Source: Candidatus Nealsonbacteria bacterium
GTDB lineage: Bacteria > Patescibacteriota > Minisyncoccia > Minisyncoccales > RBG-13-42-11
Length of the DNA: 64,000 bases
Assembly: GCA_026396115.1 (NCBI GenBank)
Contig: JAPLXL010000004.1
Span: 19,805 to 83,804, forward strand
Direction of reading: 5' to 3'
Positions 3,665-51,628 of this stretch are shown in pieces. Position 1 is the stretch's first letter. Every line of letters starts with the position of its first letter. The translations under genes and the position numbers were made by a program. Below the pieces are notes generated by a model. The model was not told where the DNA came from. It searched no databases and was given only the letters and a program-made list of their open reading frames with translations.

Positions 3665-3666
3665 TA

Positions 3667-3723: not shown

Positions 3724-3724
3724 T

Positions 3725-4141
3725 ATGAAAAAAATAATTCCAATTATTGTCATACTCATTTTAGTGGTCGGAGGTGGCGCATTCTATGGTGGAATGAAAT
3801 ATGGGCAGAGTAAAGGTCCTTCCCGTCAAGCCCCCCAAAATTTATCTCCAGAACAACGCCAACAATTTTTGCAAGGAGGAACTCAAAGAGCTGGAGCAGG
3901 TTTTCTTTCTGGTGAAGTTATTGCCAAAGATGAGCAGAGTTTAACCCTTAAAATGCCAGATGGTGGCTCAAAGATTGTCTTTTTTTCAGATTCTACCCAA
4001 ATATCCAAAACAACCGAGGGATCAATAGGTGATATTGAAGTTGGTAAGCAAATTATGGTTTCGGGTAGTCAAAACTCTGACGGGAGCTATACTGCAAAAA
4101 CAATTCAGCTTTCTCCTCGTGTTATCCAACCCGAGAAATAG
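3725..4141 (+). CDS. Hypothetical membrane-anchored/secreted protein
   Basis: 138-aa ORF with N-terminal hydrophobic helix (IIPIIVILILVVGGGAFYGG), Gln/Gly-rich linker, beta-rich C-terminal domain. Confidence 0.6.
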   Translation: MKKIIPIIVILILVVGGGAFYGGMKYGQSKGPSRQAPQNLSPEQRQQFLQGGTQRAGAGFLSGEVIAKDEQSLTLKMPDGGSKIVFFSDSTQISKTTEGSIGDIEVGKQIMVSGSQNSDGSYTAKTIQLSPRVIQPEK

Positions 4142-6750: not shown

Positions 6751-7411
6751 TTTTTGATTGAAAAGATTGTTTCGGAAAGTTCGTTAAAAATTGAATAATT
6801 AAAACCGTAGAAGTAGAAAATATATATACCCATATTTTGTGGTTATTAATTACTAGCTCAGTGCAAGCCGGATTAATTTTTGGCTTGACTGGGCAATCAA
6901 AAAATTTTACAGGCGGATGGTGGATGCCTTGGAAGATTGAGGCGATGAAGGACGTGGCGTGTCTGCGATAAGCCTCGGGGAGGTGGTTAGCAACCTTTGA
7001 TCCGGGGATTTCCGAATGGGGAAACCCAACGCGAATCAACAACGCGTTACCGCGCTGCGAAACAGCGTGGAGCAAACCTGGGGAAGTGAAACATCTCAGT
7101 ACCCAGAGGAAAAGAAAACGAAGTTTAATTCCCTTAGTAGCGGCGAGCGAAAAGGGAAGAGCCCAAACCTGCCAGTGCTTTGCACTCGTAGGGGTTGTAA
7201 GTTGGATATGTCCCAGAGCAATCTGGGCAGAGCTTTATAAAAATGTGATTTGGCTAGACGAAGGTTCCTGGAAAGGACAGCCAAAGAGAGTAATAGCCTC
7301 GTAGTCGAAAGTCATCACATGCTCTGAGTATCTATACTTGAGTATCCCGAGAAATGATAACCTTGGGAGAAACAAGCCGGACTAACCGGCTAAGGCTAAA
7401 TACTCAATCTT

Positions 7412-7452
<41 letters not shown>

Positions 7453-9576
7453 GGGAGGTGATCCCGGTGAAATAGAACCTGAAACCATCTCGCTTACAAA
7501 GAGTCAGAGCCGAGCACATAATTTATTATGTGCTTCGGTGATGGCGTGCTTTTTGTAGAACGAGCCAACGAGTCCTCGCTCTTTCTTTGTCTAAGCGGTT
7601 TTGCCGCGAAGGCAAAGGGAAACCAAGTCTTAATAGGGCGTCTCTCGGTTTTTCCGAGAAGAGAAAGAGCAAGGGACCCGAAGCCAAGCGAGCTTGCCAT
7701 GGCCAGGGTGAATTCCGCAGAAATGCGGGAGGAGGCCCGAACCCGTGAGCCGTTCAACACTCTGGGATGAGCTGTGGTAAGAAGTGAAAAGCTAATCGAG
7801 CTTGGTAATAGCTGGTTCTCCCCGAAATAGCTTTAGGGCTAGCCCGAGCAATTACCTACAGGGGTAGAGCACTGAATGGAATATCGTGGGTTTTACCTAG
7901 GTAATCCAATCAAACTCCGAATACTGTAGGTCAGAGCATATATTTTATGTGCTTTGATATATGCTCGGAGTTAGACTGTGGGGGCTAAGCTCCATGGTCA
8001 AAAGGGAAACAGCCCAGATCTTCATCTAAGGTCCCTAAACTAAGCTAAGTGTTTTGAAGGAAGTGAGACACCTGAGATAGTTAGGAGGTTAGCTTAGAAG
8101 CAGCTATCCTTTAAAAAGTGCGTAATAGCTTACTAACTAAGGAGTTTCGCGCCGAAGATTTATCGGGGCTAAGCTTAGTACCGAAGATAAGGGAACGTAC
8201 AATTTGCTTTGCAAATGTTACGTTCGGTAGGGGAGCGTTCTCTTCGCAGCGAAGTTAAACCGTGAGGTTTGATGGAGCGGAGAGAAGTGAGAATGTTGGC
8301 ATGAGTAACCGCAATGCCGCTGAGATAGCGGCACACCGAAAACCCAAGGTTTCCTTGGCAATGACAATCAGCCAAGGGTTAGGCGGTCCTTAGTCCAAAA
8401 CCGAAAGGTCAGGATGATGGACAGCCGGTTAATATTCCGGCCCCCGAGCACATAATCCAAAGAGGGGACGAAGTCTAGTAGTTTGGGCGAGTTATCGGAT
8501 TCTCGTTGTTAACCTAAGAATTTTCAAGGGTTAGCAAAATGCTTTGATTCTTCAAGGCAAATTCAAATAAGCAGGCTTCCCAGAAAAGCCTCAAAGGAAT
8601 TTAATTATGTGCTTGGTCCGTACCGCAAAACCGACACAGGTGGGTTGGTGTAAATGCACCAAGGTGAACGGGTGAAACCTCGTTAAGGAACTCGGCAAAA
8701 AAGTGGTCGTAAGTTCGCAATAAGACTTCTGAGCATATAAGTTTTATGTGCTCGGCGCAGCGAAAGTACCCCTGGCGACTGTTTACCAAAAACACAGGTC
8801 CCTGCTTAATTCGTAAGAAGATGTATAGGGGCTGAGGCCTGACCAGTGCTGGAACGTTAACGTCGCCGGTCTCATCGCAAGGTGAGGCTGAGTGACCGAA
8901 GCGCCAGTGAACGTCGGCGGTAACTATAACCGTCTTAAAGTACCGTAATCCCTTGCCAGGTAAGTTCTGGCCCGCAGGAAAGGTTTAACGACTGGGGGAC
9001 TGTCTCAACGAGGAGCCCGGTGAAAACGCAATACCGGTAAAGATGCCGGTTACCTACGGCTAGACGGAAAGACCCCGGGAGCTTTACTGTAGTTAAATAT
9101 TGAATTTTGGTTTTGAATGCGTAGCGTAGCGGGTAGGCTTTGAAGTGTCGTTTTCGGACGGCATGGAGCCGCCAATGAAACACCCGTCTTTTAAAATCTT
9201 TATTCTAACTCTGCTAAAAGCGGAAAACAGTGTTTAATGGGCAGTTTAAGTGGGGCGCTTGCCTCCTAAAAGGTAACGGAGGCGTTTATTAAGGTCGGCT
9301 AGGCACGGATGGAAATCGTGCTCGTCGTGTAAAGGCACAAGCCGGCTTGACTGCAAGAGGGATAACTCACGCAGGCACGAAAGTGGAACTTAGTGAACCG
9401 ACGGATTTTTGTAGAAAATCCGAAGATCATCAACTAAAAGCTACCCCGGGGATAACAGGCTAGTAGGGCCCGCGAGTTCATATCAACGGCCCTGTTCGGC
9501 ACCTTAACATATCGGGGTGCTATAGTAGTAATGCTATATCTCGCTTAAGGCGGGACGAAAAAACTGACTTATAACG

Positions 9577-9774
9577 GTGAAATCCATATGTTATAATATA
9601 TATATGGACAATACCGTGGGAAGTTTAACTCAATTTCAAAAATCGATAATCATAGGATCAATTTTAGGAGATGGGTATTTAAGAATTATTTCTGGCAGAA
9701 ATAATGCCTTTTTAGAAATAAATATTAATCCGGTGATTTTATCGATTTGGTTTATGGATGACGGAAGCAAATAA
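9577..9774 (+). pseudogene. Decayed LAGLIDADG homing endonuclease ORF inside intron 1
   Basis: 65-aa ORF keeps IIGSILGDGYL and WFMDDGSK motifs, but the sequence between them and the C-terminal half are missing. Confidence 0.7.
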
Positions 9775-9869
9775 TGAAATATAAATTGGGTTATAACCCC
9801 GTAGAGACTTGCTCAAAATGAGCAGATGAAAATAAAATTTTCATAATACGTCAGCCCCACCAAGGTTAG

Positions 9870-9924
9870 CTCGAAGAAGCTACGCTTCTTCTCGACCTTC
9901 GCTTTTGCTTCGCAAAAGCTCGGT
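9870..9924 (+). repeat. GCPE repeat, full form, inside intron 1 (P8-equivalent hairpin)
   Basis: CTCGAAGAAGCtacGCTTCTTCTCGACCTTC-GCTTTTGCttcGCAAAAGC-TCGGT between AATACGTC and GATATAGTCC; intron 2 has a plain hairpin here. Confidence 0.85.
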
Positions 9925-10068
9925 GGGTGAAGATATAGTCCGATCCTCCTTGTAAAAGGAGAAAAATACCGACAGCGATGTCGGCTCATCTCATCCTGGG
10001 GGTGAAGCAGCTCCCAAGGGTTTGGCTGTTCGCCAATTAAAGAGGTACGTGAGCTGGGTTCAAACCGT

Positions 10069-10388
10069 GGTTCCAATTTGGAACAGGCGGCCTCATTGGG
10101 CAATCAATGAGTGCAAAAACCCCGCACCAAAACTTTTAGTTTGATACGGGGTAAACCGACTAATATCGGTGAAGTCCATAGAAATTCTTTCAACCTGTAT
10201 TTCTATGGATAATACCGAGGCAAGTCCAATTTAAAAAGTTGGATGAGCCGTAGAGACTTTTCGCCGCAGAGGCGAAAGATGGAAGTTAACCTTCCATAAT
10301 ACGTCGGTCCCCTAAACCCGGTTGCTAAAAGCAACTTAGGGTCGGGTGGTGATATAGTCCATACATTTAGTAATAAGTGAAGTATATG
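10069..10388 (+). mobile_element. Group I intron 2 in 23S (approx. E. coli 2593, I-CreI-type site), ORF-less
   Basis: Splits GGGTTCAAACCGT|CGTAAGACAGGTTGG; 5' exon ends in T, insert ends in G; shares CCGTAGAGACTT..AATACGTC..GATATAGTCC core with intron 1. Confidence 0.85.
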
Positions 10389-10706
10389 CGTAAGACAGGT
10401 TGGTCCCTATCTACCGTAGGCGTTGAGTCTTGAGGGGGGTTCTCACTAGTACGAGAGGATCGTGAGGAACTGACCTCTGGTCTACCAGCTGTTCCACCAG
10501 GAGCATTGCTGGGTAGCTAAGTCGGGAACTGATAAGTGCTGAAAGCATCTAAGCGCGAAGCAGGCCCCAAGATTAGGACTCTTAGATTCCCCGCAGATTA
10601 CGGGGTTGATAGGCTGCAGGTGTAAGTGCAGTAATGCATTCAGCCGAGCAGTACTAATAAATCATTGATTTTTTGTTGCCCAATTAAACTGGGCTAGTAA
10701 TTAATG

Positions 10707-10762
10707 ACCGAGCCCCGCAATAGCGTGGCGAGGGGGAAGAAGAAAACTTTGTTTTCTTTGCC
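10707..10762 (-). repeat. GCPE repeat, variant full form, in 23S-5S spacer
   Basis: ACCGAG-CCCCGcaataCGTGG-CGAGGGGGAAGAAGAAAACtttGTTTTCTTTGCC. Confidence 0.7.
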
Positions 10763-10996: not shown

Positions 10997-11093
10997 ACCG
11001 AGCTTCCGAAGGAAGCGAAGGTGAAGAAGAGTGCGAAGAAAAGCGCTTCTTCTTTCGTCTCGTCTTTGACTCGACGGACGAAGTCCTCTTCGA
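10997..11093 (-). repeat. GCPE repeat, long form with ~50-bp inner module
   Basis: ACCGAGCTTCCgaaGGAAGCGAAGGTGAAGAAGAGTGCGAAGAAAAGcgcTTCTTCTTTCGTCTCGTCTTTGACTCGACGGACGAAGTCCTCTTCGAC; enclosed by 12-bp inverted repeat AAAAAATCACCC (10978-10989) / GGGTGATTTTTT (11097-11108). Confidence 0.88.
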
Positions 11094-11118: not shown

Positions 11119-11304
11119 TTATTCAATATCTTTACCCCAATCTTCCTCTTCTTCTTCTTCCTCCTCCTCCTCCTCTTCTTCTTCTTCTTCTTTCTCTTCC
11201 TCTTTTTCTTCATCTTCATCTGCTTCTAAGTCATCTTCAAGTCCGAAAAGCTCTTCTTCGATTTCTTGACAAACCGGGGAGACAAAAAGTTTATCTTTCG
11301 TCAT
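11119..11304 (-). CDS. Small acidic poly-Glu protein (uncertain)
   Basis: 61-aa ORF, ATG start; more than half Glu/Asp, encoded by a long GAA/GAG tract (about 11141-11225). Confidence 0.3.
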   Translation of the reverse strand: MTKDKLFVSPVCQEIEEELFGLEDDLEADEDEEKEEEKEEEEEEEEEEEEEEEEDWGKDIE

Positions 11305-12766: not shown

Positions 12767-14855
12767 AAGACGAAGAGTACTTCGTCCGTCGAGTCAAATA
12801 CGAGACGAAAGAAGAAAAACTTTTCTTCGCACTCTTCTTCACATTCGCTTCCATAAATGGAAACTCGGTAACAGAAGAATTCAACTCGCTTTTAAGGAAG
12901 ACATTGAGCCTCACGAGATTCTTTTGGATTCTCTTGCCGAAAAAAAAGAAAAAGAGTTGGGCCTTTCGGAAAAGAAATTTGAAGTCCCTCTTCTAAAAAG
13001 AATTATCCAAAGTTTTTTTATTTTTTGTTTTTTTATAATATTGTTTCTTTTTTTTAAAACCTTTCAACTTCAGGTGGTTGAAGGAAAAAATTTTATCCAA
13101 CTGGCAGAGAGAAATAAATTTATCATTCACCATATTCAGGCGGAGAGAGGAGTTATTTATGATAAAAACTTAGAACAATTGGTTTTTAACAAATCAACAT
13201 TTGATTTAATTTGCGAAAAAAGTAAGATTCCTCAAGATGAAGCCGAGAAAGAAAGAATTTTACAACAAGTTTCAAAGTTTCTTGAAAAAGACGTTAAAGA
13301 GCTAAAAAAAGAAATCGACGAATCTGAATCCGATCAAGTTTTGATTGCTAAAAATCTTTCTCATCAGGAATTAATTTTATTTGAAACAAGAATTGACGAG
13401 TTCCTGGGCTTCCAAATAAAAAACAATGTTATCAGAGAATATAGAGATGGTGAAGTTTTTAGCCAGATTATCGGCTATACGGGAAAAATAAAAAGCGAAG
13501 AATTTGAGGCAGCCCCCGAATTTTATTTAATTAATGATTATGTTGGTAGAACCGGCGTAGAAAATTTTTACGAAAGATTTTTGAGAAAAAATCCTGGAAA
13601 ATTAAGAATTGAAAGAGATGTTTTTGAAAACGTAATTTCCAAAGAAGTTGTTTCTCTGCCAGAATCCGGAAAGAGTTTGGTTTTGTGGTTGGATGCCGAT
13701 TTGCAGAGAAAGACAGAAGAAGAATTGGAAAAAAAATATAAAGAAATTGGAGCCAAAGGAGCAATAGCCATAGCCATGGATCCCAAAACCGGCGGCATAT
13801 TATCTTTGGTTTCTCTACCCAGTTTTGATAATAATTTATTCCAAAAGGGAGCTGACCAAAAATCTCTTCAAGCTCTTTTGGAAGATTCTCAAAATCTTAA
13901 TTCGCTCTTCGACCGAGCGATTTCCGGAAGATATCTGACGGGTTCAACCATAAAACCCTTAATTGCTTCAGCCGCTCTTGAAGAAAAAATAATTAATCCT
14001 GATGAAAAAATTAATTGTCAGGGGCTGATAGAGGTTGAACACACCTATACATCTGAAACCACTGAATTTCTCGACTGGACAGTGCACGGCTGGACGGATT
14101 TAAGAAAAGCCATTGCTGAATCTTGTAACGTTTACTTTTATACAGTAGGAGGAGGATATAAAGAACAAGAAGGTTTGGGACCGACCAAAATTAAAGAATA
14201 CTTAGAACTTTTTGGCTGGGGGGAGAAGACCGGTATTGATCTTCCTGGCGAAATTAATGGTTTTATTCCCGATAAAGAATGGAAAAAAAGAGTTTTAGGA
14301 GAAGGTTGGTGGGATGGTAACACTTATAATCTTTCAATCGGCCAGGAATATCTTCAAATTACTCCCTTGGAAGTGGTGACTAGTTTTTCAGCCATTGCTA
14401 ATGGCGGAAAATTGCTTCAGCCTCAAGTGGTTAAAGAAATAATTACTACTTCAGGCACCTCAACTGAAGTTTCAGTAGTCGAAGAAGATTTATCTTCTTC
14501 TTCACCCTTCGCTGCGGCTCGGGTAGTTAAGGAATTTGAGCCAGAAATTATTAGAGAAAACTTTATTGATCCTGGAAATCTTCAAATTGTTAGGGAGGGA
14601 ATGAGGCAGGCAGTAACCGGACAAAATTCTCCTCTGGCCTCGTCCGTAATATTGAATTCCTTGCCCATAGCTGTTGCCGCCAAAACCGGGACAGCCGAAT
14701 TGGGAGGAGATAGATATCATAACTGGGTTACTGTTTTTGCGCCTTACGAAGATCCGGAAATTGTTTTAACGGTGATGATTGAAGATGTTAAAGGCGTTCA
14801 GGCAGCTGTCTTGCCCGTGGCCAAAGCAATTTTAGAATGGTATTTTACTAAATAA
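12735..14855 (+). CDS. mrdA: Penicillin-binding protein 2 (elongasome transpeptidase)
   Basis: 706 aa; TM helix then PBP dimerisation and transpeptidase domains (STIKP = SxxK, KTGTAE = KTG); mreCD neighbours; two repeat inserts. Confidence 0.87.
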   Translation: MLEFLSFKKFKRRRVLRPSSQIRDERRKTFLRTLLHIRFHKWKLGNRRIQLAFKEDIEPHEILLDSLAEKKEKELGLSEKKFEVPLLKRIIQSFFIFCFFIILFLFFKTFQLQVVEGKNFIQLAERNKFIIHHIQAERGVIYDKNLEQLVFNKSTFDLICEKSKIPQDEAEKERILQQVSKFLEKDVKELKKEIDESESDQVLIAKNLSHQELILFETRIDEFLGFQIKNNVIREYRDGEVFSQIIGYTGKIKSEEFEAAPEFYLINDYVGRTGVENFYERFLRKNPGKLRIERDVFENVISKEVVSLPESGKSLVLWLDADLQRKTEEELEKKYKEIGAKGAIAIAMDPKTGGILSLVSLPSFDNNLFQKGADQKSLQALLEDSQNLNSLFDRAISGRYLTGSTIKPLIASAALEEKIINPDEKINCQGLIEVEHTYTSETTEFLDWTVHGWTDLRKAIAESCNVYFYTVGGGYKEQEGLGPTKIKEYLELFGWGEKTGIDLPGEINGFIPDKEWKKRVLGEGWWDGNTYNLSIGQEYLQITPLEVVTSFSAIANGGKLLQPQVVKEIITTSGTSTEVSVVEEDLSSSSPFAAARVVKEFEPEIIRENFIDPGNLQIVREGMRQAVTGQNSPLASSVILNSLPIAVAAKTGTAELGGDRYHNWVTVFAPYEDPEIVLTVMIEDVKGVQAAVLPVAKAILEWYFTK
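12769..12870 (+). repeat. GCPE repeat, long form, in frame in the PBP2 N-terminal tail
   Basis: GACGAAGAGTACTTCGTCCGTCGAGTCAAATACGAGACGAAAGAAGAAAAACTTTTCTTCGCACTCTTCTTCACATTC-GCTTCCataaatGGAAAC-TCGGTA; near-identical to the reverse complement of 10997-11093. Confidence 0.9.
14478..14524 (+). repeat. GCPE repeat, short form, in frame in PBP2
   Basis: GTCGAAGAAGAtttaTCTTCTTCTTCACCCTTCGCTGCGGCTCGGGT, read as VEEDLSSSSPFAAARV. Confidence 0.88.
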
Positions 14856-19869: not shown

Positions 19870-21269
19870 AGCCGATTTCAATATCTTTATCGCCCAATAC
19901 GGAAAAAGACGATATTCTTTTAACTTTTAAATTACTTTTCCAGCCTTGGCGCTGGAAAAAAGAACGCAACGAGAACAATTCTCGTTGTATTGAATTGGAA
20001 GAAGAATTTAAAAAATATTTAAGCGCAAAATACGCAATTGCGTTTAACAGCGGCCGGTCGGCGCTGATGGCGATTTTGAATTCGTTGGAGTTAAACCAAG
20101 ACGACGAAATTTTGCTGCAGGCATTTACCTGCAATGCAACAGCTAATCCAATTATTTGGTCCGGCTTAAAGCCGGTTTATGTAGATTGCGATGAAAGGAC
20201 TTTCAATATTGATATTGAAGATTTAAAAAGAAAAATTACGCCAAAGAGTAGAGCGGTGATGGTTCAACACACTTTTGGATTAGCAGTAAATTTAGACGAA
20301 ATTTTAGAAATTTGCCGTCAGGGCGAAGAAGATAAATCTTCTTCTTCCACCGAGCTTCCGCAAGAAGCGAAGGTAAAGAAGAAGGCGGAGCCTTCTTCGC
20401 CACACAACGCTAAAGCTCGGGAAAACAATTTAATTTTAATTGAAGACTGTGCTCACTCGCTTGGCGCCGAATACAAGGGCAGAAAAGTGGGGACTTTTGG
20501 CAGAGCAGCTTTTTTTAGTTTTTCAAGGGATAAAGTTATTTCTTCTGTTTATGGCGGAATGGCTGTAACCAACGATGATGAAGTAGCGAAAAAACTTCGA
20601 GAATATCAAGAAAAAATAGGTTTTCCCTCTTACTGCTGGATTTTTCAGCAATTGTTGCATCCGGTTTTAATGAATTGGTTGATTTTACCCACTTATAAGA
20701 TTTTCGGGAAATATCTTTTAATTTTATTTCAACGGCTTCAGATTTTATCAAAAGCAGTTCACTGGAGAGAGAAAAGGGGATTAAGACCAGGTTATTTTCC
20801 AAAAGGTCTTTGCAATGCTTTAGCGGTTTTGGCCCTTAATCAATTTAAAAAATTAGAAAGATTTAATAATCACCGGAAAGAAATTGCTGAAATTTACCGT
20901 AAAGAATTAAAAGAGGAGGCAAAGCCTTCTTCGCTCACCCGAGCGACAGCGAAGGGGGAAGAAGAGGATTTATCCTCTTTGCTCGAATTGCCTCAAGAAA
21001 AAGAACAAATTTATTTAAGGTTTGCAGTAAAACATCCAAAAGCTCATGAGATTATCAAAAAAGCTTGGCAGAAAAATATTTTAATAGGAGATTGGTATAC
21101 AAGCCCGATTGCTCCTCACGATACGAAACTAAATAAGCTTCAATATCAGTTGGGAAGTTGCCCAAAAGCTGAAAAGCTTTCAAGAGAAACCTTTAATCTG
21201 CCGACCCACATAAACATTTCTCAAAGAGAAGCCAAAAAAATTATTGGTTTTTTAGAATCATGGAAGTAA
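19863..21269 (+). CDS. DegT/DnrJ/EryC1/StrS-family aminotransferase (two repeat inserts)
   Basis: Family-typical blocks (AFNSGRSAL, VMVQHTFG, SFSRDK with PLP Lys); about 100 aa longer than usual because of two repeat clusters. Confidence 0.8.
   Translation: MLKPISISLSPNTEKDDILLTFKLLFQPWRWKKERNENNSRCIELEEEFKKYLSAKYAIAFNSGRSALMAILNSLELNQDDEILLQAFTCNATANPIIWSGLKPVYVDCDERTFNIDIEDLKRKITPKSRAVMVQHTFGLAVNLDEILEICRQGEEDKSSSSTELPQEAKVKKKAEPSSPHNAKARENNLILIEDCAHSLGAEYKGRKVGTFGRAAFFSFSRDKVISSVYGGMAVTNDDEVAKKLREYQEKIGFPSYCWIFQQLLHPVLMNWLILPTYKIFGKYLLILFQRLQILSKAVHWREKRGLRPGYFPKGLCNALAVLALNQFKKLERFNNHRKEIAEIYRKELKEEAKPSSLTRATAKGEEEDLSSLLELPQEKEQIYLRFAVKHPKAHEIIKKAWQKNILIGDWYTSPIAPHDTKLNKLQYQLGSCPKAEKLSRETFNLPTHINISQREAKKIIGFLESWK
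20321..20422 (+). repeat. GCPE nested composite, in frame in DegT gene
   Basis: Forward SL1 GGCGAAGAAGAtaaaTCTTCTTCTTCC, then a reverse full copy ACCGAGCTTCCgcaaGAAGCGAAGGTAAAGAAGAAGGCggaGCCTTCTTCGCC, then forward tail ACACAACGCTAAAGCTCGGGA. Confidence 0.8.
20912..20982 (-). repeat. GCPE repeat, short form (reverse) plus extra SL1-like hairpin, in frame in DegT gene
   Basis: AGAGGAGGCaaaGCCTTCTTCGCTCACCCGAGCGACAGCGAAGGGGGAAGAAGAGGAtttaTCCTCTTTGC, read as TRATAKGEEEDLSS. Confidence 0.8.
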
Positions 21270-27997: not shown

Positions 27998-28546
27998 ATG
28001 GAAGAAAAAAAAGAGGAAATTAAAAAAGAACTAAATATCGAGGAATTGAAAAAGAAATTAGAGGAGTGTCAGAAGTTAAAGGAAGAGTATTTGGCTGGTT
28101 GGCAGAGAGCCAGAGCAGACCTCTTGAATTATAAAAAAGAAGAAATAGAAAGAATAGAGGAGATTTTAAAGTATGGCGGGGAAGAGTTTATTTTGAAAAT
28201 TCTGCCAATTTTGGATAATTTTGATTTGGCAGAAAAAAAACTGCCAGAAGATTTAAAAAACAACGATAGCATAAAAGGATTATTACAGATTAAAACTCAG
28301 ATTTTAGATTTTTTAAGAATCCAAGGGGTTGAAGAAATAAAAACAATAGGAGAAAAATTTGATCCAAATTTTCACGAGGCGGTAGAGCAGGTCGAAGAAA
28401 GCAAGCTTTCTTCTTCCCCCTCAGCTTTCGCTCGGGAGATTGAAGCAAAAGACAAGGACTCGGGCATTATTGTTGAAGAAGTCCAAAAAGGATATAAAAT
28501 TAACGGCAGGCTCTTGAAGCCCGCCAAAGTCAAAGTCGTAAAATAA
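27998..28546 (+). CDS. grpE: Nucleotide exchange factor GrpE (with repeat insert)
   Basis: RARADLLNYKKE, ILPILDNFD, FDPNFHEAV blocks; insert between HEAV..Q and the C-terminal beta domain. Confidence 0.9.
   Translation: MEEKKEEIKKELNIEELKKKLEECQKLKEEYLAGWQRARADLLNYKKEEIERIEEILKYGGEEFILKILPILDNFDLAEKKLPEDLKNNDSIKGLLQIKTQILDFLRIQGVEEIKTIGEKFDPNFHEAVEQVEESKLSSSPSAFAREIEAKDKDSGIIVEEVQKGYKINGRLLKPAKVKVVK
28391..28437 (+). repeat. GCPE repeat, short form, in frame in grpE
   Basis: GTCGAAGAAAGCaaGCTTTCTTCTTCCCCCTCAGCTTTCGCTCGGGA, read as VEESKLSSSPSAFARE. Confidence 0.85.
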
Positions 28547-35596: not shown

Positions 35597-35866
35597 TTGC
35601 TTATGTTAACAAAAATAAAACAGTTTGTCAAAACTTATCAAACCGACATCATTTTAGTGATTGGCGTTGTTTTAATTTCTTTGCTTTCTTTTGCCATGGG
35701 TTATATTGTAGCAAAACAGCAAGAAAAGGAACCCATTAAAATTGAAAAAGGAGTTGAAGAAGAGTCCTTCTTCTCCACCTTCGCTTTCGCTACGCGAAAG
35801 CTCGATAGTCGAAGAGAGCTTCGCTCTCTTCTTTACCTTCGCTTCCTGCGGAAGCTCGGTGTATGA
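35597..35866 (+). CDS. Small membrane protein; C-terminal half is read-through of two repeats
   Basis: TM helix [22 protein letters not shown]; from about residue 52 the frame runs through repeats 35753-35861 with no stop until 35866. Confidence 0.4.
35753..35807 (+). repeat. GCPE repeat, full form (first of head-to-tail pair)
   Basis: GTTGAAGAAGAGtcCTTCTTCTCCACCTTC-GCTTTCGCtaCGCGAAAGC-TCGATA. Confidence 0.9.
35808..35861 (+). repeat. GCPE repeat, full form (second of pair)
   Basis: GTCGAAGAGAGCttcGCTCTCTTCTTTACCTTC-GCTTCCtgcGGAAGC-TCGGTG; 1 nt before ATG 35863. Confidence 0.9.
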
Positions 35867-36840
35867 AGATAGCAATAATTGGAGCAGGGATAAACGGGCT
35901 TTATCTGGCTTGGAAATTGGCTGAAAGGGGAGAGGAAGTAATTGTTTTTGAAAAGAGAGAAAAAATCGGCAAAGAGGCCTGTTCGGGACTGTTTTCAGAA
36001 AGAATTTTAGAATTTATTCCTCCCTCGTCGAGTCAAAGACGAGACGAAAGAAGAAAAACTTTTCTTCGCACCGAAATACAAAAATTAATTCAAAACCAGA
36101 TAAATTCCACTTTAATTCACTTTCCAGGGCGGACTTTTAAAATTAGATTTTCGAAAAAATTTTTTGTAATGGACCATTTTAAGTTAGATAATTTAGTTGC
36201 CGAATTAGCTCAAAAAGCGGGAGTAAAAATTATTTTAAATAATCATATAAATTTTTTGCCCGTAGGTTTTGATAGAATTATTGGTTGCGATGGTGCGGTA
36301 TCCCTTGTTAGAAAAATTCTAGGTCTAAAGGAACCGAATTATCGTTTGGCTATTCAAGGAGTTATTTCTAAAAGAGATTATTCCGATTTCGTTGAGACTT
36401 GGCCGGTAGACCAGGGGTTTATCTGGAAAATTCCGCGAGGGAAAGAAACAGAATATGGAATAATCGCCAGCCCCAAAGAGGCAAAGAAGGTATTTCAAGA
36501 TTTTTTAGCAAAAAACAAAATTTTTATAGAAAAAATATCTTCGGCACTGGTTCCTCGAGGGTTTTTAGCCCCTTTGAACAATCGGATTACTCTTTGTGGC
36601 GATGCTGTAGGTTTAACCAAACCTTGGTCAGGCGGAGGAGTTATATGGGGATTGATAGCTGCTGATTTACTCTTGAAAAATTTTCCAGATTTTTTAAAAT
36701 ATCAGAAAGAAATAAAAAGGTTTTTTTTACCAAAAATTATTTTTTCCAAAATCGCGACGAAAATGGTTTATTTTTTCGGATTTAATATTCCTTGGTTAAT
36801 ACCAAAAAATGTCAGAATTAAAAGCGATTTTTTAATCTAA
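35863..36840 (+). CDS. FAD-dependent oxidoreductase (geranylgeranyl reductase-like)
   Basis: Rossmann GxGxxG (IAIIGAGINGLYLA), GDA(A/V)G-like CGDAVGL; contains a fragment of the long repeat module. Confidence 0.7.
   Translation: MKIAIIGAGINGLYLAWKLAERGEEVIVFEKREKIGKEACSGLFSERILEFIPPSSSQRRDERRKTFLRTEIQKLIQNQINSTLIHFPGRTFKIRFSKKFFVMDHFKLDNLVAELAQKAGVKIILNNHINFLPVGFDRIIGCDGAVSLVRKILGLKEPNYRLAIQGVISKRDYSDFVETWPVDQGFIWKIPRGKETEYGIIASPKEAKKVFQDFLAKNKIFIEKISSALVPRGFLAPLNNRITLCGDAVGLTKPWSGGGVIWGLIAADLLLKNFPDFLKYQKEIKRFFLPKIIFSKIATKMVYFFGFNIPWLIPKNVRIKSDFLI
36024..36071 (+). repeat. Fragment of GCPE long-form inner module, in frame in oxidoreductase gene
   Basis: CTCGTCGAGTCAAAGACGAGACGAAAGAAGAAAAACTTTTCTTCGCAC (compare 12790-12832), read as SSSQRRDERRKTFLRT. 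Confidence 0.8.
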
Positions 36841-38055: not shown

Positions 38056-38135
38056 GCTCAATGAATATAAAATTCATTTCGCCTTTGAGCTCAATGAATA
38101 TAAAATTCATTTCGCCTTCGATATTGATTCGGCTA
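38056..38135 (+). repeat. GCPE-architecture variant with TGAAT arms, SL1 unit duplicated in tandem
   Basis: GCTCAATGAATATAAAATTCATTTCGCCT occurs twice (38056-38084, 38088-38116), then TCGATATTGATTCGGCTA tail; overlaps the 3' end of gene 38107..38625. Confidence 0.65.
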
Positions 38136-38625
38136 TAGAAAGCCATTTTTGGCCCTGAATCTTCTTAATTTTGTATTTTTGCATTATTTTCTGTATTTCT
38201 ATTAATTGCAGAAAATCTTCTTTTTTCCATTCTTTAATTGCTTTTCCTTTGTTTTGAAAAAGGATTTCGATGGCTTTGCTCCACCATTCAGAATTCTGTT
38301 TTCTGTTTCCGGACAAGTCATATTCCTTGAAAAAGGGAATTACTTTATTGTAAAGATCGTCAATGCTTTGAACGGAATATCTGATTTTGTTTTCACCGAC
38401 AAAATGAAGCAGGCCGCAATTAAGAGAATTTTGGATTTTTCTTAATAAATCTTCATCTTTATATTTTCCCATAACCACAAACTGAGCTTTCCATCCATAA
38501 TAAACGGGACGATTGGTTCTTTTATATTTAACATCCCTTCTAAACTGCAAGTCAAAACAACCTTGACTATTTATAAAATCAATAATTTGTTTTTTTGATG
38601 ATATTTTTTCTTTTGCTTTGTTCAT
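38107..38625 (-). CDS. Free-standing LAGLIDADG-type endonuclease-like protein
   Basis: IIDFINSQGCF (compare GFxDxEGCF), later VIPFFKEYDLSGNRKQNSEWWSKAI (compare IPFFxKYxLxGxKxxDF); the acidic residue before G is Gln. Confidence 0.6.
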   Translation of the reverse strand: MNKAKEKISSKKQIIDFINSQGCFDLQFRRDVKYKRTNRPVYYGWKAQFVVMGKYKDEDLLRKIQNSLNCGLLHFVGENKIRYSVQSIDDLYNKVIPFFKEYDLSGNRKQNSEWWSKAIEILFQNKGKAIKEWKKEDFLQLIEIQKIMQKYKIKKIQGQKWLSIAESISKAK

Positions 38626-38633
38626 GTGATTGA

Positions 38634-39581
38634 TTATTCCTTTAGGCTGTGGAATTTTCGATGAATATCTCGAAGTTGTTTGCTGGTAACATGAGCATAA
38701 ATTTGAGTGGCAGCAATACTTTTGTGGCCTAGAAACTCTTGGATGGTTCTTAAATCTACTCCTTGGTTAAGTAAATCGGTAGCGAAACTATGCCTCATCA
38801 CATGGGGAGTGGTTGTCAGTGGTAATCCAGCTAAAATGGCGCATTTTTTAATTATTTTTTCAATTGAACGAGGAGTTAATCTCCGGGGAGCCCTAATTTT
38901 GGAGCGATAATTAATAAATAAAGCTTTCTCTTTATCTTTACGCGTTTCAAGATATTTTTTTAACCAAAATAAAGCTCTTTGAGAGAAATAAACCGTTCGA
39001 ATTCTCCCTCCTTTACCAACGATTGAGAGTTCCAATTCTTCCATTCCTAGCTTTATTTTAATTTGCTCCCGGTTTAATGCTGTAAGTTCGGCTATTCTCG
39101 TACCCGTTGAAAACAAGGTTTCTAAAATAGCGCGGTCCCTTAAACCTTGAATTTTAGAAACATCGGGAGTTAAAAATAGTTTTTCTAATTGTTCTAAATT
39201 TAAAAAACGAACTTGTCTTTCACCTTTATCTTTGGCTAATTTTATTTTTTCTGCTGGTAGAGAGAGAATGTCGCGGTCGGCAAAATAGTTTAGGAGGGAC
39301 CTGAGGGCTATTAAATAATAATTCTGAGTTGACTTTTTGAGGGGTTGCTTGGTTTTAGGGAGATATTGGCGAGAAAGGAAGAGGCGGTATTTCCAGATGT
39401 GTTCGGGAGTTAATTCGTGCGGCTTCAAATTTTCTAAGCTACTTATTTCTAGCCAATCAAAAAATCTTTTCAGAAATCTTGCATAATTTTCTTGAGATTT
39501 TGATGATAAACCTTTCTCAATCTCAAGCCAGTCCAGAAAATCTGATAGATGGTGGGGGATTGGTTTTGGGCTTTTCTCCAT
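38634..39581 (-). CDS. Tyrosine recombinase (XerC/XerD-like integrase)
   Basis: SAM-like N-domain; catalytic blocks GTRIAEL, HVMRHSFATDLL, LGHKSIAATQIYAHV. Confidence 0.87.
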   Translation of the reverse strand: MEKSPKPIPHHLSDFLDWLEIEKGLSSKSQENYARFLKRFFDWLEISSLENLKPHELTPEHIWKYRLFLSRQYLPKTKQPLKKSTQNYYLIALRSLLNYFADRDILSLPAEKIKLAKDKGERQVRFLNLEQLEKLFLTPDVSKIQGLRDRAILETLFSTGTRIAELTALNREQIKIKLGMEELELSIVGKGGRIRTVYFSQRALFWLKKYLETRKDKEKALFINYRSKIRAPRRLTPRSIEKIIKKCAILAGLPLTTTPHVMRHSFATDLLNQGVDLRTIQEFLGHKSIAATQIYAHVTSKQLRDIHRKFHSLKE

Positions 39582-41931: not shown

Positions 41932-42672
41932 TCATCTAGTTAAATATGCCACAAGATAATTGGCAATTATCCAGCCGGCTTCAGGCCTGGAAAATCCTTT
42001 TGCTTCTTCGGACATTTTTTTGAGTGCTTCAGGATCAGTAAAAAGAGATTTTAATTTTTCTAAGAAAAAATGAGAAGTAAAATTATTTTCTTCCATTACT
42101 AAACAAGCGCCGGACTCTTGGTAAGTATAAGCGTTTTTCACCTGATGGTTTTGAGCGGATTCTGATAAAGGAATTAAAACAGAAGGTTTGCCGGCGGCCG
42201 CAATTTCAAAAATACTTCCAGATCCTGCCCGGCTGACAATTAAGTCAGCAGCTGCATAAGCTTGGCGAAGTTCTGGCTCTTTCAAAAAAGGATAAAGATG
42301 ATAAAAGGGTTCCAAATCTTTATTTATTATTAGTTTTAATTCTGCTTTTATTGTTGCATAGTTATTTTTTCCGCATTGATGGATTACTTCAAAGTTTTCC
42401 AAAAGTCGCGGCAGGATTTCTAAAATTTCGTCATTAATTCTCTGGGCTCCTTGCGATCCACCCAGAATTAAAATAACGGGTTTGACTAAGGGCGAAGAAG
42501 ATTTATCTTCTTCTTTACCCTTCGCTGCGGCTCGGGTGGGCGAGGAAATTAAATATTTCACATTGGAAGGGTTTGATGGGGTAAAACCGCTTTTAACCGA
42601 GAGCGAAGAAGATAAATCTTCTTCTTCCCCCTTCGCTACCGCTCGGGAGGGCGAATCTCCTTCTCCGCCCAT
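41932..42672 (-). CDS. murG: MurG C-terminal (UDP-GlcNAc-binding) domain only, fused to about 60 repeat-derived residues; truncated or split gene
   Basis: ILGGSQGAQ..., SRAGSGSIFEIAAAGKPSVLIP, NHQVKNA blocks match the MurG C-domain; no N-domain ORF upstream on this strand. Confidence 0.6.
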   Translation of the reverse strand: MGGEGDSPSRAVAKGEEEDLSSSLSVKSGFTPSNPSNVKYLISSPTRAAAKGKEEDKSSSPLVKPVILILGGSQGAQRINDEILEILPRLLENFEVIHQCGKNNYATIKAELKLIINKDLEPFYHLYPFLKEPELRQAYAAADLIVSRAGSGSIFEIAAAGKPSVLIPLSESAQNHQVKNAYTYQESGACLVMEENNFTSHFFLEKLKSLFTDPEALKKMSEEAKGFSRPEAGWIIANYLVAYLTR

Positions 42673-43284: not shown

Positions 43285-44055
43285 CTACCAAGCTTCCGAA
43301 GGAAGCGAAGTAGAAGAAGATTTCTTCTTCTCCACCTCAGCTGAAGCTTCGGTAGTTGAAGAAGAGGATTTATCCTCTTCGACTTTCTTTTTAAAATCAT
43401 TCCAATTAATCTCTCCGGCATTAGCTATAGGGCAAACTTCTTTAAATTGGCAATATCTACATTGCCAGTTTTTAGGGTAATCTGGCAATCTATCGGGAAT
43501 AATGTTTTTATCAATCTTTTTTTTAACATCATTTAAGGCGTCCAAGAGAGAAAGGACGCGTTTTTTATCATAATTTACTATAAAATCCTTTAATTGCTGG
43601 TTGTCTTTATTAACGTAAAGCAGTATTCCTCTGGGAATTTTAAAATAATGCAAATAAAGCTGGATTTGATCAATGTTTTCTTCTTTTGGTTCAATCAAGT
43701 TTTTAAAAATCATGCTGTTCATACTCTTGATATCTAAGACATATAAATTCTTTCCGTTACTGATTATGGCATCGGCCCTGCCCGAAATCAATTCCTGAGG
43801 AGGAATGTTTACTTCGGCAGCAACCACATGGATTTCTCTAATGCTTAAAAGAGGTTTCATAATAAGCTGATGAATGTGGTCGCCGTGATCGAATAATCTT
43901 AAAATATTTGCTTCCATTTCTTTCCGGGGCACATTTTTGAATTTAAAAAATATTGCCCTGGCGCATTTGCCGGCATCGGTAATGTAAAAGTGATGCTGTT
44001 CTTTGTCCTTTTGCCTATCCAAATAAAATTTATCAATGAGTTCTCTAAGAAACAT
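43285..44055 (-). CDS. PD-(D/E)XK nuclease, Cas4/RecB-like with Cys cluster; repeat-derived C-terminal tail
   Basis: GRADAI, VLDIKS (D-x-K), QIQLYLHY; one N-terminal Cys (GKCARA) plus CRYCQFKEVC; last about 35 aa encoded by repeat 43287-43383. Confidence 0.62.
   Translation of the reverse strand: MFLRELIDKFYLDRQKDKEQHHFYITDAGKCARAIFFKFKNVPRKEMEANILRLFDHGDHIHQLIMKPLLSIREIHVVAAEVNIPPQELISGRADAIISNGKNLYVLDIKSMNSMIFKNLIEPKEENIDQIQLYLHYFKIPRGILLYVNKDNQQLKDFIVNYDKKRVLSLLDALNDVKKKIDKNIIPDRLPDYPKNWQCRYCQFKEVCPIANAGEINWNDFKKKVEEDKSSSSTTEASAEVEKKKSSSTSLPSEAW
43287..43383 (-). repeat. GCPE triple composite unit
   Basis: ACCAAGCTTCCgaaGGAAGCGAAGTAGAAGAAGAtttCTTCTTC-TCCACCTCAGCTGAAGCTTCGGTAG-TTGAAGAAGAGGAtttaTCCTCTTCGAC. 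Confidence 0.88.
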
Positions 44056-44983: not shown

Positions 44984-45083
44984 ACCAAGCCCCGCGCAGC
45001 GGGGCGAATTCGAAGAAGATTCCTTCTTCTCCACCTCAGTTGAAGCTTCGGTAGGTGAAGATGAGAACGAATTTCTCATCGCC
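44984..45083 (-). repeat. GCPE triple composite unit
   Basis: ACCAAGCCCCGCgcaGCGGGGCGAATTCGAAGAAGAttcCTTCTTC-TCCACCTCAGTTGAAGCTTCGGTAG-GTGAAGATGAGAACgaattTCTCATCGCC; abuts rplM ATG. Confidence 0.88.
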
Positions 45084-46830: not shown

Positions 46831-46832
46831 AT

Positions 46833-46888
46833 ACCGAGCTTCCATTTATGGAAGCGAAGGTGAAGAAGAGGACGAAGTCCTCTTCGCC
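46833..46888 (-). repeat. GCPE repeat, full form (rpsK-rpsD spacer)
   Basis: ACCGAGCTTCCatttatGGAAGCGAAGGTGAAGAAGAGGAcgaagTCCTCTTCGCC; CTCGGTATATG junction with rpsD. Confidence 0.93.
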
Positions 46889-47861: not shown

Positions 47862-47863
47862 AT

Positions 47864-47920
47864 ACCGAGCTTTCGCGCAGCGAAAGCGAAGGTGAAGAAG
47901 AAAACGAAGTTTTCTTCGCC
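47864..47920 (-). repeat. GCPE repeat, full form (infA-rpmJ spacer)
   Basis: ACCGAGCTTTCGCgcaGCGAAAGCGAAGGTGAAGAAGAAAACgaaGTTTTCTTCGCC; CTCGGTATATG junction with rpmJ; extra half-site ATCGAGCTTT at 47922-47931. Confidence 0.93.
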
Positions 47921-47941
47921 TATCGAGCTTTATTTCTTTGA

Positions 47942-48157
47942 CTATTTTCCGCGGTATACTATTCTTCCTCTTTTTTCATCATAGGGACTTAATTCTACGC
48001 TAACATTGTCTCCGGGTAAAATTTTAATTCGGAACATTCTTAATTTTCCTGCTAAATAACAGAGAATTTCTCCTCCCTGATCTAACTTCACCTTAAAATG
48101 CGTACTGGGTAAAGCTTCTATAACAGTTCCGGTTTTTCTTAAATTTTTTTTATCCAT
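47942..48157 (-). CDS. infA: Translation initiation factor IF-1
   Basis: 71 aa S1-like OB fold; [31 protein letters not shown]. Confidence 0.94.
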
Positions 48158-48161
48158 TAAT

Positions 48162-48359
48162 TACCAAACTTCCATTACCGAGCTTCCGAAGGAAGTGAAG
48201 GTGAGAAAGAGTGCGAAGAAAGTAAGATTTCTTCTTCCCCCTTCGCTGTCGCTCGGGAGTGCGAAGAAAAGTTTTTCTTCTTTCGTTTCGTCTTTGACTC
48301 GACGAATGAAATTCTCTTTCGACTATGGAAGTGAAGTCGAAGAAGATTCCTTCTTCGAC
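48162..48359 (-). repeat. GCPE long form carrying a nested short-form copy, plus flanking partial copies
   Basis: ACCGAGCTTCCgaaGGAAGTGAAGGTGAGAAAG[AGTGCGAAGAAA]gtaagatTTCTTCTTCCCCCTTCGCTGTCGCTCGGG[AGTGCGAAGAAA]AGTTTTTCTTCTTTCGTTTCGTCTTTGACTCGACG..; bracketed 12-mers at 48210-48221 and 48258-48269. Confidence 0.85.
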
Positions 48360-48403
48360 CAGACAATTTCTTAGTTTATCAAAATTTATTAAATTAGTCA
48401 ATC

Positions 48404-48460
48404 ACCGAACCCCGCCCACAGCGGGGCGAAGGTTAAGAAGAGAACAAAGTTCTCTTCGCC
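48404..48460 (-). repeat. GCPE repeat, full form
   Basis: ACCGAACCCCGCccacaGCGGGGCGAAGGTTAAGAAGAGAACaaaGTTCTCTTCGCC. Confidence 0.88.
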
Positions 48461-48461
48461 T

Positions 48462-48483
48462 ACCGAGTCCCGCGTAGCTGGAC
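48462..48483 (-). repeat. GCPE half copy (tail+SL2)
   Basis: ACCGAGTCCCGCGTAGCTGGAC. Confidence 0.55.
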
Positions 48484-49879: not shown

Positions 49880-51628
49880 TTATTCTAAAATAGCCTGAAT
49901 TCTTCGCACTCCGGCACCAGAACTTTCTTCTTTTATAATTTTAAATAAGCCCAATTCTGAAGTTCTTTTAATGTGGGGACCGGCACAAATTTCTTTCGAG
50001 AAGTCTTCGATTAAAAAAACTGTTACGATTTCGGGATATTTTTCTTTAAAAACCGAGTTTCCGCGAAAAGGAAACGAAGGTGAAAAAGAGGATTTATCCT
50101 CTTTGCCCAAAGCTAAAGCCCCGCTTTTTATTGCAGCCTTATAATTCATCTCTTCTTTTTTTACCTCCAAATCTTCTTTGATTTTCTGATTAACAAGACT
50201 TTGAACTTTTTTAATTTCATTTTCTGTCATCTTTTGATGATGAGAAAAATCAAATCTTAATCTTTGAGAAGTAATATCTGAACCCATTTGTTTAACATGC
50301 TCCCCTAAGATTTTTCTTAAGGCAGCCTGAAGCAAATGAGTGGCGGTATGAAGTTTTGTTGTCTCATAAGTCACTTCCTTTCCTACTCCGCCAAATTTAC
50401 TTTCTACCCCGGCTCTGGAAATCTCTTGATGTTTTTTAAAAGCCTCTTCAAATCCTTTTTGATCAATATTTAAATTTCTTTCTTTAGCAAGTTCAATTGT
50501 TAGTTCTAAAGGGAAACCATAGGTATCATACAGATGAAAAGCATCAACCCCAGAAATATTCCCTTTTTTGGAAATGTTCTCAAACTGCTTTAATCCTTCA
50601 TGGAGAGTTCTTTCAAATTTTTCTTCCTCTTGTTGAATTACGGTTAGAATCTCTTCTTCTTTTGATTTAATTTCCGGATAAACATTTTTGTAGATTTCAA
50701 TTACTTTTTGAGCCAGAAGAATTAAGAAATTAGCAGGTAAATTAAGCAATTTGCCGTATCTGATTGCTCTCCTTAGAATTCTTCTCAGAACGTATCCCTT
50801 CTCAACATTGGAAGGCAAAATCCCATCCGAAATCAAAAAAACTGCACTCTTCACATGATCAGCAATAATCCTTCCCCCTTTTAAATTTGCAGGGGTCCGA
50901 CCCGTGTATTTTTGAAGCTCGCCGATAATTGACTCGAATAAATCGGTCTCAAAGACGCTGGATTTATTTTGAACAATCATTGCTAATCTCTCTAATCCCA
51001 TGCCAGTGTCAACGCCCTTTTGTACCAATGGAGTAAGTTGCTTATTTTTATCTTGATAATATTCATTAAAAACCAGATTCCAAACTTCGATGCCCTTAAT
51101 ATGAATTTCGGTTGTTGGGCCGCAGGGGCCTTCTTGACCGGTCGGACCCCAAAAATTATCTGCTCTTCCGCATTTTTTTATTTTATTTTTATGAACTCCT
51201 AATTCTTTCCAAATTTCAACCGATTCTTCGTCTTCCGGCACATCTTTATCACCCTCAAAAACTGTAAAAATTGTTTCCTTCAGGGGCAATTTTAATTCTT
51301 TAAAAATAAACTCGTAAGCCCAACTTATCGCTTCCTTTTTGAAATATCCCCCAAAAGAAAAATTACCCAACATTTCAAGAAAAGTTAAATGGCTTTCATC
51401 TCCCACTTCTTCAATATCAGAAGTTCTAAAACATTTCTGGCAAGAACAGACATTCTGACCATAAGGGGATTTTTCTACCAGATAATAAGGCTTAAATTGC
51501 TGCATTCCGGCCGTGGTAAAAAGAACCGAGGGGTCGGTCGGAATAAGCGAGATGGGGGGCACTATTTTATGCCTCTTTTTTTCAAAGAATTTCAAAAATT
51601 GTTCTCTTAATTTTCTCGAGGTCATCAA
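49880..51628 (-). CDS. alaS: Alanine--tRNA ligase, compact form (no C-Ala domain) with repeat insert
   Basis: FTTAGMQQFKP catalytic block, editing-domain HTATHLL and CAGPHI motifs; 582 aa versus about 870 in model bacteria. Confidence 0.9.
   Translation of the reverse strand: MMTSRKLREQFLKFFEKKRHKIVPPISLIPTDPSVLFTTAGMQQFKPYYLVEKSPYGQNVCSCQKCFRTSDIEEVGDESHLTFLEMLGNFSFGGYFKKEAISWAYEFIFKELKLPLKETIFTVFEGDKDVPEDEESVEIWKELGVHKNKIKKCGRADNFWGPTGQEGPCGPTTEIHIKGIEVWNLVFNEYYQDKNKQLTPLVQKGVDTGMGLERLAMIVQNKSSVFETDLFESIIGELQKYTGRTPANLKGGRIIADHVKSAVFLISDGILPSNVEKGYVLRRILRRAIRYGKLLNLPANFLILLAQKVIEIYKNVYPEIKSKEEEILTVIQQEEEKFERTLHEGLKQFENISKKGNISGVDAFHLYDTYGFPLELTIELAKERNLNIDQKGFEEAFKKHQEISRAGVESKFGGVGKEVTYETTKLHTATHLLQAALRKILGEHVKQMGSDITSQRLRFDFSHHQKMTENEIKKVQSLVNQKIKEDLEVKKEEMNYKAAIKSGALALGKEDKSSFSPSFPFRGNSVFKEKYPEIVTVFLIEDFSKEICAGPHIKRTSELGLFKIIKEESSGAGVRRIQAILE
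50052..50106 (-). repeat. GCPE repeat, full form, in frame in the alaS editing domain
   Basis: ACCGAGTTTCCgcgaaaaGGAAACGAAGGTGAAAAAGAGGAtttaTCCTCTTTGCC, read as GKEDKSSFSPSFPFRGNSV. Confidence 0.88.

Follow-up and report, generated by a model that had tools for sequence, protein, structure and literature searches.

Introduction

REP sequences, together with BIMEs and REPINs, are hairpin repeats of 30–50 nt with a conserved single-stranded tail, which lie between the genes of operons in mosaic clusters of alternating orientation and leave no target duplication. REPs occur outside genes and have a tetranucleotide of the GTAG type; the hallmark of the system is a RAYT gene in single copy with REPs on either side. 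The units described here resemble REPs and REPINs in consisting of a hairpin with a conserved tail and in forming mosaic clusters, whereas they also lie inside open reading frames and the 23S rRNA gene, have the tail CCGAGC..GCGAAGG and came without a detectable RAYT in the 818 kb examined.

IS200/IS605 elements lack terminal inverted repeats and cause no target duplication; their hairpins are subterminal, and insertion takes place at a constant position 3' of a short specific sequence on one strand. Like these elements and their miniature derivatives (PATEs), the units do not duplicate their target and keep a fixed offset from a short one-strand motif, and those of 54 and 57 nt resemble a fused left and right hairpin of IS200/IS605. 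Unlike in IS200/IS605, however, the target (YTC + 3–4 nt) resembles the unit's own 3' end, units of 45 and 48 nt with a single hairpin still move, and no Y1 transposase was detected in 818 kb.

In reduced genomes, RPEs have been described as small palindromic repeats without an associated transposase gene, with many in-frame inserts in unrelated housekeeping proteins and a recurrent peptide (PMC10969869). The present units likewise lie in frame in many unrelated protein genes of a reduced genome, but differ from RPEs (about 100–150 bp, Rickettsia) in their length of 45–57 nt, their modularity, their self-nesting and their CPR host, the two being set apart here by size and host. To our knowledge, neither the target rule (YTC + 3–4 nt) nor the strain-level turnover has been reported for RPEs. 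Classical bacterial MITEs (Correia/CREE, ERIC, BOX, RUP) can be co-transcribed and can alter expression (PMC10969869). The units share with them that they are non-autonomous, abundant and, as in BOX, sometimes modular; however, classical MITEs have terminal inverted repeats and fixed target-site duplications such as TA, and neither was present when the family was tested for them.

CPR genomes are among the smallest and most streamlined known, and the usual focus is on gene loss. In the 64-kb stretch of Candidatus Nealsonbacteria DNA analysed here (the window; related sequences carry L numbers), about 4% consists of tiny hairpin units that differ among strains 96–99% identical to each other and that are found in the leader of an essential translation factor, in ribosomal proteins, in an aminoacyl-tRNA synthetase and in 23S rRNA. 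If these units are mobile by a duplication-free mechanism with defined ends, they would offer a natural system for the study of minimal DNA hairpin mobilisation, would rapidly generate variation in the protein loops and UTRs of reduced genomes, and would in practice cause CPR metagenome assemblies to break. The alleles found here in the empty, filled and doubly filled state make the mechanism testable.

A dense family of short hairpin units

Comparison of the window with itself revealed at least 43 repeat regions, which together cover 2.6 kb. Read on the forward strand, a unit consists of 2–3 variable bases, CCGAGC, hairpin 1 or (in the short form) a 4-nt linker, GCGAAGG(T)GAA, hairpin 2 (GAAGAG..loop..CTCTTC), and G or A followed by two bases. 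The tails CCGAGC and GCGAAGG are conserved and the ends are fixed as NN(N)-CCGAGC ... TTC-R-NN. Modal lengths are 45 and 48 nt for units with hairpin 2 only and 54 and 57 nt for units with two hairpins. Both hairpins show covariation: in a set of 25 ungapped 57-nt copies from several genomes, 96.9% of the cells were paired and 11 of 18 pairs had changed on both sides, which none of 500 shuffles reached. An Rfam scan at the gathering threshold matched the units to no known RNA family.

A pattern search with a 20-nt core gave matches in Candidatus Nealsonbacteria genomes, among them the complete genome CP179888.1 with eight loci, and the family was also present in other MAGs of Parcubacteria/CPR. 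Literature searches on such repeats in CPR, Parcubacteria and Nealsonbacteria returned no description, and the family of 45–57-nt elements is apparently undescribed. By our own tally, the forward strand of the unit is antisense to the local gene in 24 copies and sense in 10, a ratio that is inseparable from replication direction here. Near-identical 57-nt units are present in L024 (CP179888.1), in L104 and at 46832–46888 of the window, although the housekeeping genes are much more diverged; as far as sequence comparison goes, the candidate causes are functional constraint, concerted evolution and horizontal spread of the units. More distant relatives carry a different intergenic repeat family rich in TACGAA/TTCGTA motifs (L078:2453, L078:8355, L079:9167, L083:7851), which lies at equivalent operon junctions and is also polymorphic between close strains.

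A layered insertion in the infA leader

The infA regions of relatives came from exact-protein look-ups plus a single metagenome scan; GCA_030692425.1 (about 96%) is the public genome nearest to the window. All recovered relatives have the promoter TTGACT-17-TAAACT in common (in the minus-strand orientation of the window). The composite of units upstream of infA (48176–48360) is located between this promoter (-10 at 48373) and the ATG (48157) and is thus part of the 5'UTR. The leader thereby grows from about 20 to about 215 nt, and the composite has a strong fold (z = -4.3). Coordinates of the features discussed are collected in Table 1.

Table 1. Hairpin units, repeats and neighbouring features in the window (positions 1-based)
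Feature	Position	Strand	Remarks
Direct-repeat copy 1, GAGTGCGAAGAAA	48209–48221		
Direct-repeat copy 2, GAGTGCGAAGAAA	48257–48269		
Module B, 48-nt single-hairpin unit CTCCCGAGCG...TTTCTTCGCA, strain-specific insert	48212–48259	-	Absent from L001, L104–L106
Module C, 45-nt single-hairpin unit CGTCGAGTC...CTTTTCTTCGCA, nested in host hairpin 2	48260–48304	-	In window and L001; absent from L104–L106
Host two-hairpin unit, 5' part: TACCGAGC, hairpin 1, GTGAAGGTGAGAAAGAG	48176–48211	+	Joined to 3' part in L104–L106
Host two-hairpin unit, 3' part: AATGAAATTCTCTTTCGAC	48305–48323	+	
Additional truncated unit adjoining the host unit	48324–48360	+	
infA promoter TTGACT-17-TAAACT	48373–48401	-	Conserved in >20 related loci; also found by consensus scan
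infA (IF-1, 71 aa)	47942–48157	-	PF01176
One full and one partial unit upstream of the infA promoter	48403–48483	+	Absent from L066; tandem duplication in L002
Units in the infA-rpmJ spacer	47863–47941	+	Four different states among close strains
102-nt nested pair read through in frame in DegT	20321–20422	+	Pfam DegT match interrupted at residue 153 (nt 20322)
44-nt unit at the rpsI (S9) stop codon, 15-nt repeat GGTCGAAGAGATAAA	44076–44119	+	Absent from L002, L065
45-nt unit nested in a host unit between ..CACC and TTCGC..	45009–45053	-	Absent from L002
Clean 57-nt unit between rpsK stop and rpsD ATG (aaatt, unit, tatg)	46832–46888	+	Absent from L002, L065; junction repeat 0
alaS codons G-V-R-R-I, GAGTGCGAAGAAT, natural look-alike of a unit terminus, recurrent insertion point	49899–49911	-	

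A sequence-only reading of the window had drawn attention to a 12-mer at 48210–48221 and 48258–48269 that flanks 36 bp, and had described the arrangement as a short-form copy inside a long-form copy. The repeat reads as described, but its exact extent is 13 nt with 35 nt in between. This 13-mer occurs four times in the window, namely at 11029–11041 (+), at 12822–12834 (-) and twice in the infA leader, and a version with one mismatch lies at 49899–49911 (-) within alaS. Its chance expectation in the window is 0.14, and none of 100 shuffles gave five matches.

Pairwise alignment of the long forms showed one clean extra segment of exactly 48 nt in the copy upstream of infA relative to those at 10997–11093 and 12769–12870, which carry the 13-mer once each, in agreement with the earlier observation on the 12-mer. 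The solo partial copy at 36026–36070 has its first base exactly at GTGCGAAGAAA. As had been proposed, the extra segment with one repeat copy makes up a complete single-hairpin unit, CTCCCGAGCGACAGCGAAGGGGGAAGAAGAAATCTTACTTTCTTCGCA (48212–48259, minus strand; module B), the placement of which can slide by 13 nt. Relatives of B at other loci are 89–93% identical; the closest are found in L104 (93%) and at 28391–28438 of the window (89%), and the same termini recur at 42602–42649. The description of a short form within a long form holds with one refinement, since the long form consists of a two-hairpin unit in which a 45-nt unit (module C) is already nested, with B beside C. Paralogs of C are present at 11032–11076 (-), 12787–12831 (+) and 36026–36070 (+), and C occupies an identical relative position in three host units with differing hairpin sequences.

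The orthologous site is found in a series of states. Distant relatives (e.g. L067, L069, L071–L073) contain no element and have about 20 nt from the -10 to the ATG. A plain two-hairpin unit, in which gtcgaaagagaatttcatt is directly followed by ctctttctcaccttcgcttccttcggaagctcggta, with neither C nor B, is present in L104, L105 and L106 (about 96–97% identical to the window). In L001 (98.3% identical overall and 99.1% across the site) the host unit carries the 45-nt C exactly at the junction of gtcgaaagagaatttcatt and ctctttctcaccttcgcttccttcggaagctcggta and no 48-nt B, and the window has the host unit, C and B. This stepwise series identifies B as a real insertion at strain level and bears out the suggestion that the elements have moved recently. 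Judging from the aligned alleles, the infA stack is composed of three layers, i.e. the host two-hairpin unit, C nested in its hairpin 2, and B head-to-tail beside C. As the states nest with sequence distance (96–97%, 98.3%, window) and the other C copies (11032–11076, 12787–12831, 36026–36070, and that in L109, a 99% identical strain) all lack B, the simplest history is one of three successive insertions with B as the last. We therefore consider it likely that the segment represents a recent, strain-specific insertion of the 48-nt B, a member of the dense and active family of 45–57-nt hairpin units, directly 3' of the resident C.

The opposite polarity, with an ancestral B that slipped-strand deletion between the 13-nt repeats removed from L001, would yield exactly the empty allele observed there, and hairpin DNA between direct repeats is known to delete readily. 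However, the more distant L104–L106 are devoid of both C and B while their host hairpin is intact, B is equally absent from the other C copies and from L109, and the nesting of the states with sequence distance speaks against a loss as well, so that loss in L001 appears unparsimonious and very improbable. Slightly less probable still is that the segment arose when a low-complexity tract slipped or was duplicated locally in tandem, or through misassembly of repeat-rich DNA. The region is indeed purine/pyrimidine-rich and repetitive, and one true tandem duplication of a unit, with a repeat of 41 nt, is known from L002. The B-containing allele was seen in the window only. Short-read contigs of the same strain (L103, L107 and L110, with 100% identity to the window) end within the flanking repeats, and a database look-up of three spurious open reading frames spanning B returned no record and so no independent assembly of this allele. 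Yet the 35 nt enclosed by the repeats have a similarity of only about 60% to the adjacent C, as opposed to 89–93% to B-type units elsewhere, and what was inserted is a whole 48-nt unit with correct termini.

The composition of the 13-mer accounts for the repeat itself. B-type units elsewhere have the native 3' end ..CTTTCTTCGC(T/C/A) and have CTC or TTC before CCGAGC at their 5' end; the 3' end of C is ..CTTTTCTTCGCA, and the host sequence past the insertion point starts with CTC. The 13-mer is thus made up of the 10-nt 3' terminus common to C and B (TTTCTTCGCA) plus 3 nt (CTC) that stand both at the 5' end of B and at the start of the host sequence after it, as is expected when a member of the family lands directly behind another. 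A perfect repeat around an extra segment is also what a classical target-site duplication would leave, in this case after a 12–13-bp staggered cut by a DDE-type transposase mobilising a MITE. Such an origin is extremely improbable, since the repeat sequence equals the consensus terminus of the family and a target-derived repeat would leave the inserted DNA without one arm of its own hairpin. Moreover, terminal inverted repeats are absent at the boundaries given by empty/filled pairs: the ends TACCGAGC... and ...TCTTCGCC are not reverse complements, TACCGAGC at one end standing against GGCGAAGA as the complement of the other.

Two further observations concern the surroundings of the composite. 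Between the unit and the infA ATG lies an 18-nt stretch (48158–48175, atggaagtttggtaatta) with a mini-ORF of four codons (ATG GAA GTT TGG TAA), which is present in the window, L001 and L104–L108 and absent from L002. On the other side of infA, the 80-nt spacer to rpmJ exists in four repeat configurations in strains that are 96–99% identical (window, L001, L104, L105/L106, L108): plain, with 45 nt nested, with 54 nt in tandem, and with a different unit that contains a nested 54-nt unit.

Insertion events and target preference

About 30 clean presence/absence events were obtained from pairwise alignments of the window with L002, L065, L066 and L068 and of other related pairs, and their flanking direct repeats were tabulated; the list was partly compiled by hand, and where flanks have diverged some boundaries can be placed only to within a few bases. 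Every insert carries the defined ends of the family, and the insert length was a multiple of three in 23 of the 30 events (P = 1.5e-6). Junction repeats measured 0 nt in 13 events and 1–2 nt in eight, followed by single events of 3, 3, 4, 5, 7, 8, 13, 15 and 41 nt, the last being the L002 tandem duplication. Simulated random insertion into the same sequence gave 54%, 27% and 12% for 0, 1 and 2 nt, and 7% for at least 3 nt. The sequence-only reading had offered a target-site duplication as one of two explanations for the infA repeat. This does not hold up: a duplication of fixed length was looked for in the 30 events and not found, repeats being 0–2 nt long in 21 of them and varying in the rest, at 3–15 nt apart from the tandem case. 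With junction repeats of no fixed length (0–15 nt), there is no fixed target-site duplication, and a staggered-cut duplication is ruled out as the general mechanism.

The position of the insertions follows a short motif. In 16 of 34 window copies TTC lies at exactly -8 to -6 from CCGAGC, compared to a background of 3.5% (P = 5e-15), which places insertion 3–4 nt after YTC (mostly TTC). The element's own 3' end carries this motif as TTC-G-CC, TTC-G-AA or TTC-G-CA. When 5' flanks were compared with element 3' ends, the own end gave 5.54 of 10 matches, permuted pairs 5.44 and random sequence 4.04. The flank thus resembles the copy's own end no better than those of other copies, which argues for a generic motif rule and not for copy-specific homology; strict homology-guided targeting as a general rule was set aside on these values.

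As the target motif YTC equals the motif at their own 3' end, every resident copy provides further sites, and units stack head-to-tail after a 3' end or nest after the ...TCTTC arm of hairpin 2 in either orientation. Three sites are reused. The first lies directly after the 3' end of a unit and gives tandems (B after C; 23274, 33070, 35756). At the second, after the TCTTC arm of hairpin 2, an oppositely oriented unit is inserted between ..CACC and TTCGC.. (45009–45053, 43321–43365, an insert between infA and rpmJ found only in L001, L065:5806 and L109). The third, just past the loop of hairpin 2, is the position of C in three hosts. In addition, many units end with ..GCTCGGTA directly before the (T)ATGAAR start of the next gene, as in rpsD, rpmJ and others (8–47, 3665–3738, 35808–35870, 46832–46888, 47863–47921), the reason being that TTTCAT(A) on the opposite strand serves as a target. 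Units that end at start codons separate genes from their former upstream sequence.

The second explanation offered for the infA repeat was a homology-mediated copy-in. In this scenario, units would spread by template switching or ectopic gene conversion through the conserved microhomology GCGAAGAA/TTCTTCGC, with no dedicated transposase. It would explain why junction repeats of at least 3 nt were observed in 9/30 events against the 7% expected, and why long repeats occur where the target mimics a unit terminus, as in S9 (15 nt, GGTCGAAGAGATAAA), in alaS of L078 (11 nt, GTGCGAAGAAT) and in the infA 13-mer; that no transposase was found, neither among the six-frame open reading frames of 818 kb with IS608 TnpA nor by Pfam on 20 open reading frames of the window, is in line with it. 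As a general explanation it is nevertheless unlikely. In the 13 events without junction homology, unit ends and lengths (45, 48, 54 or 57 nt) are unchanged, so that homology-assisted copy-in is not required, and C entered the infA host unit with a junction repeat of 1 nt only, i.e. at chance level. The flank comparison above gives no advantage to a copy's own end, and inserts opposite to the host orientation are impossible by unequal pairing of tandem units. Homology-assisted copy-in may account for the minority of events with long repeats.

Units inside genes

Units lie in frame inside the open reading frames of DegT, AlaS, S9, a MurG-like protein, an FtsQ-like protein, PBP2 and a Mur ligase, and each unit orientation uses one reading frame, giving ..EEDKSSSSPFAAAR.. 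or ..TRAAAKGEEEDLSS... Polymorphic in-frame inserts were found in alaS (57 nt, absent from L065 and L066), in rpsI (54 nt) and in the MurG-like frame (48 nt). The nesting in DegT, to which the earlier reading had likened the infA arrangement, is real: the open reading frame continues through the nested pair at the very point where the Pfam match is interrupted.

At the rpsI stop codon, the S9 protein is unchanged because the first 15 nt of the unit itself re-encode W-S-K-R-stop; the old codons are kept downstream as the 15-nt direct repeat. A conversion of both repeat copies at this stop was considered and is unneeded, as ..AAGAGATAA is a natural variant of the codon run in relatives. In alaS, the G-V-R-R-I look-alike GTGCGAAGAAT was struck independently in several lineages, once with an 11-nt repeat (L078). 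In the window, the insert at the 3' end of alaS (49880–49911) supplies a new stop codon and replaces the last AlaRS residues; other inserts are present at L065:5754 and L078:5891, and the site is empty in L068.

One unit lies inside the 23S rRNA gene (9871–9933), in the sense orientation of the rRNA. This gene (6898–10677) measures 3780 nt compared to 2925 nt of the Rfam model, and a second unit is located in the 23S–5S spacer (10708–10762). The region between 5S and mreC contains a long tract of CTT/CCT triplets (cttcctcttcttcttcttcctcctcc..., 11140–11290), which differs in length by a few repeats in L109.

Candidate mechanism and enzyme search

The insertion data show that new copies integrate with defined ends, without duplicating the target, 3–4 nt downstream of YTC. 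Mobilisation would depend on an enzyme acting in trans, with hairpin 2 as its recognition structure and a cleavage point at a constant distance from TTC. Most plausibly this enzyme would work on single-stranded DNA in the manner of HUH/Y1 enzymes (IS200/IS605 or RAYT-like), and the process would be copy-increasing. The two-end logic of IS200/IS605 maps poorly onto the short units without hairpin 1. A phmmer search with IS608 TnpA (query sequence verified against PDB 2A6M) gave no match among the six-frame open reading frames of 818 kb, in which a minor part of the genome is represented; RAYTs are divergent. Pfam analysis of 20 open reading frames of the window likewise yielded no transposase, HUH enzyme or related autonomous IS. 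As no Y1/HUH enzyme was found, the enzymology proposed here is inferred. An alternative in which hairpin 2 is templated by the target through fold-back synthesis, prompted by inserts in alaS and at 53038 that share their start sequences with their targets, was rejected because the same hairpin variants occur at unrelated loci and because zero-homology insertions exist.

On this basis, we tentatively propose, at somewhat less than even confidence, that the units form an undescribed, active class of very small mobile DNA in CPR/Patescibacteria. Its members would be 45–57 nt long with one or two hairpins and defined ends, would insert at YTC + 3–4 nt without target duplication through a putative structure-specific enzyme, and would reshape 5'UTRs, rRNA genes and, by in-frame insertion, essential proteins over the time in which strains diverge, with the infA stack as a record of three successive insertions.

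The same Pfam analysis found a Xer-like tyrosine recombinase, a LAGLIDADG frame and a PD-(D/E)XK/Cas4-like frame, and nothing ties these to the repeats. The first two are neighbours on the minus strand (38107–39581), where a free-standing LAGLIDADG endonuclease frame (38107–38625) lies directly downstream of the recombinase gene (38634–39581). The pair coincides with the peak of the cumulative GC skew and with a flip in gene orientation, which suggests a replication terminus.
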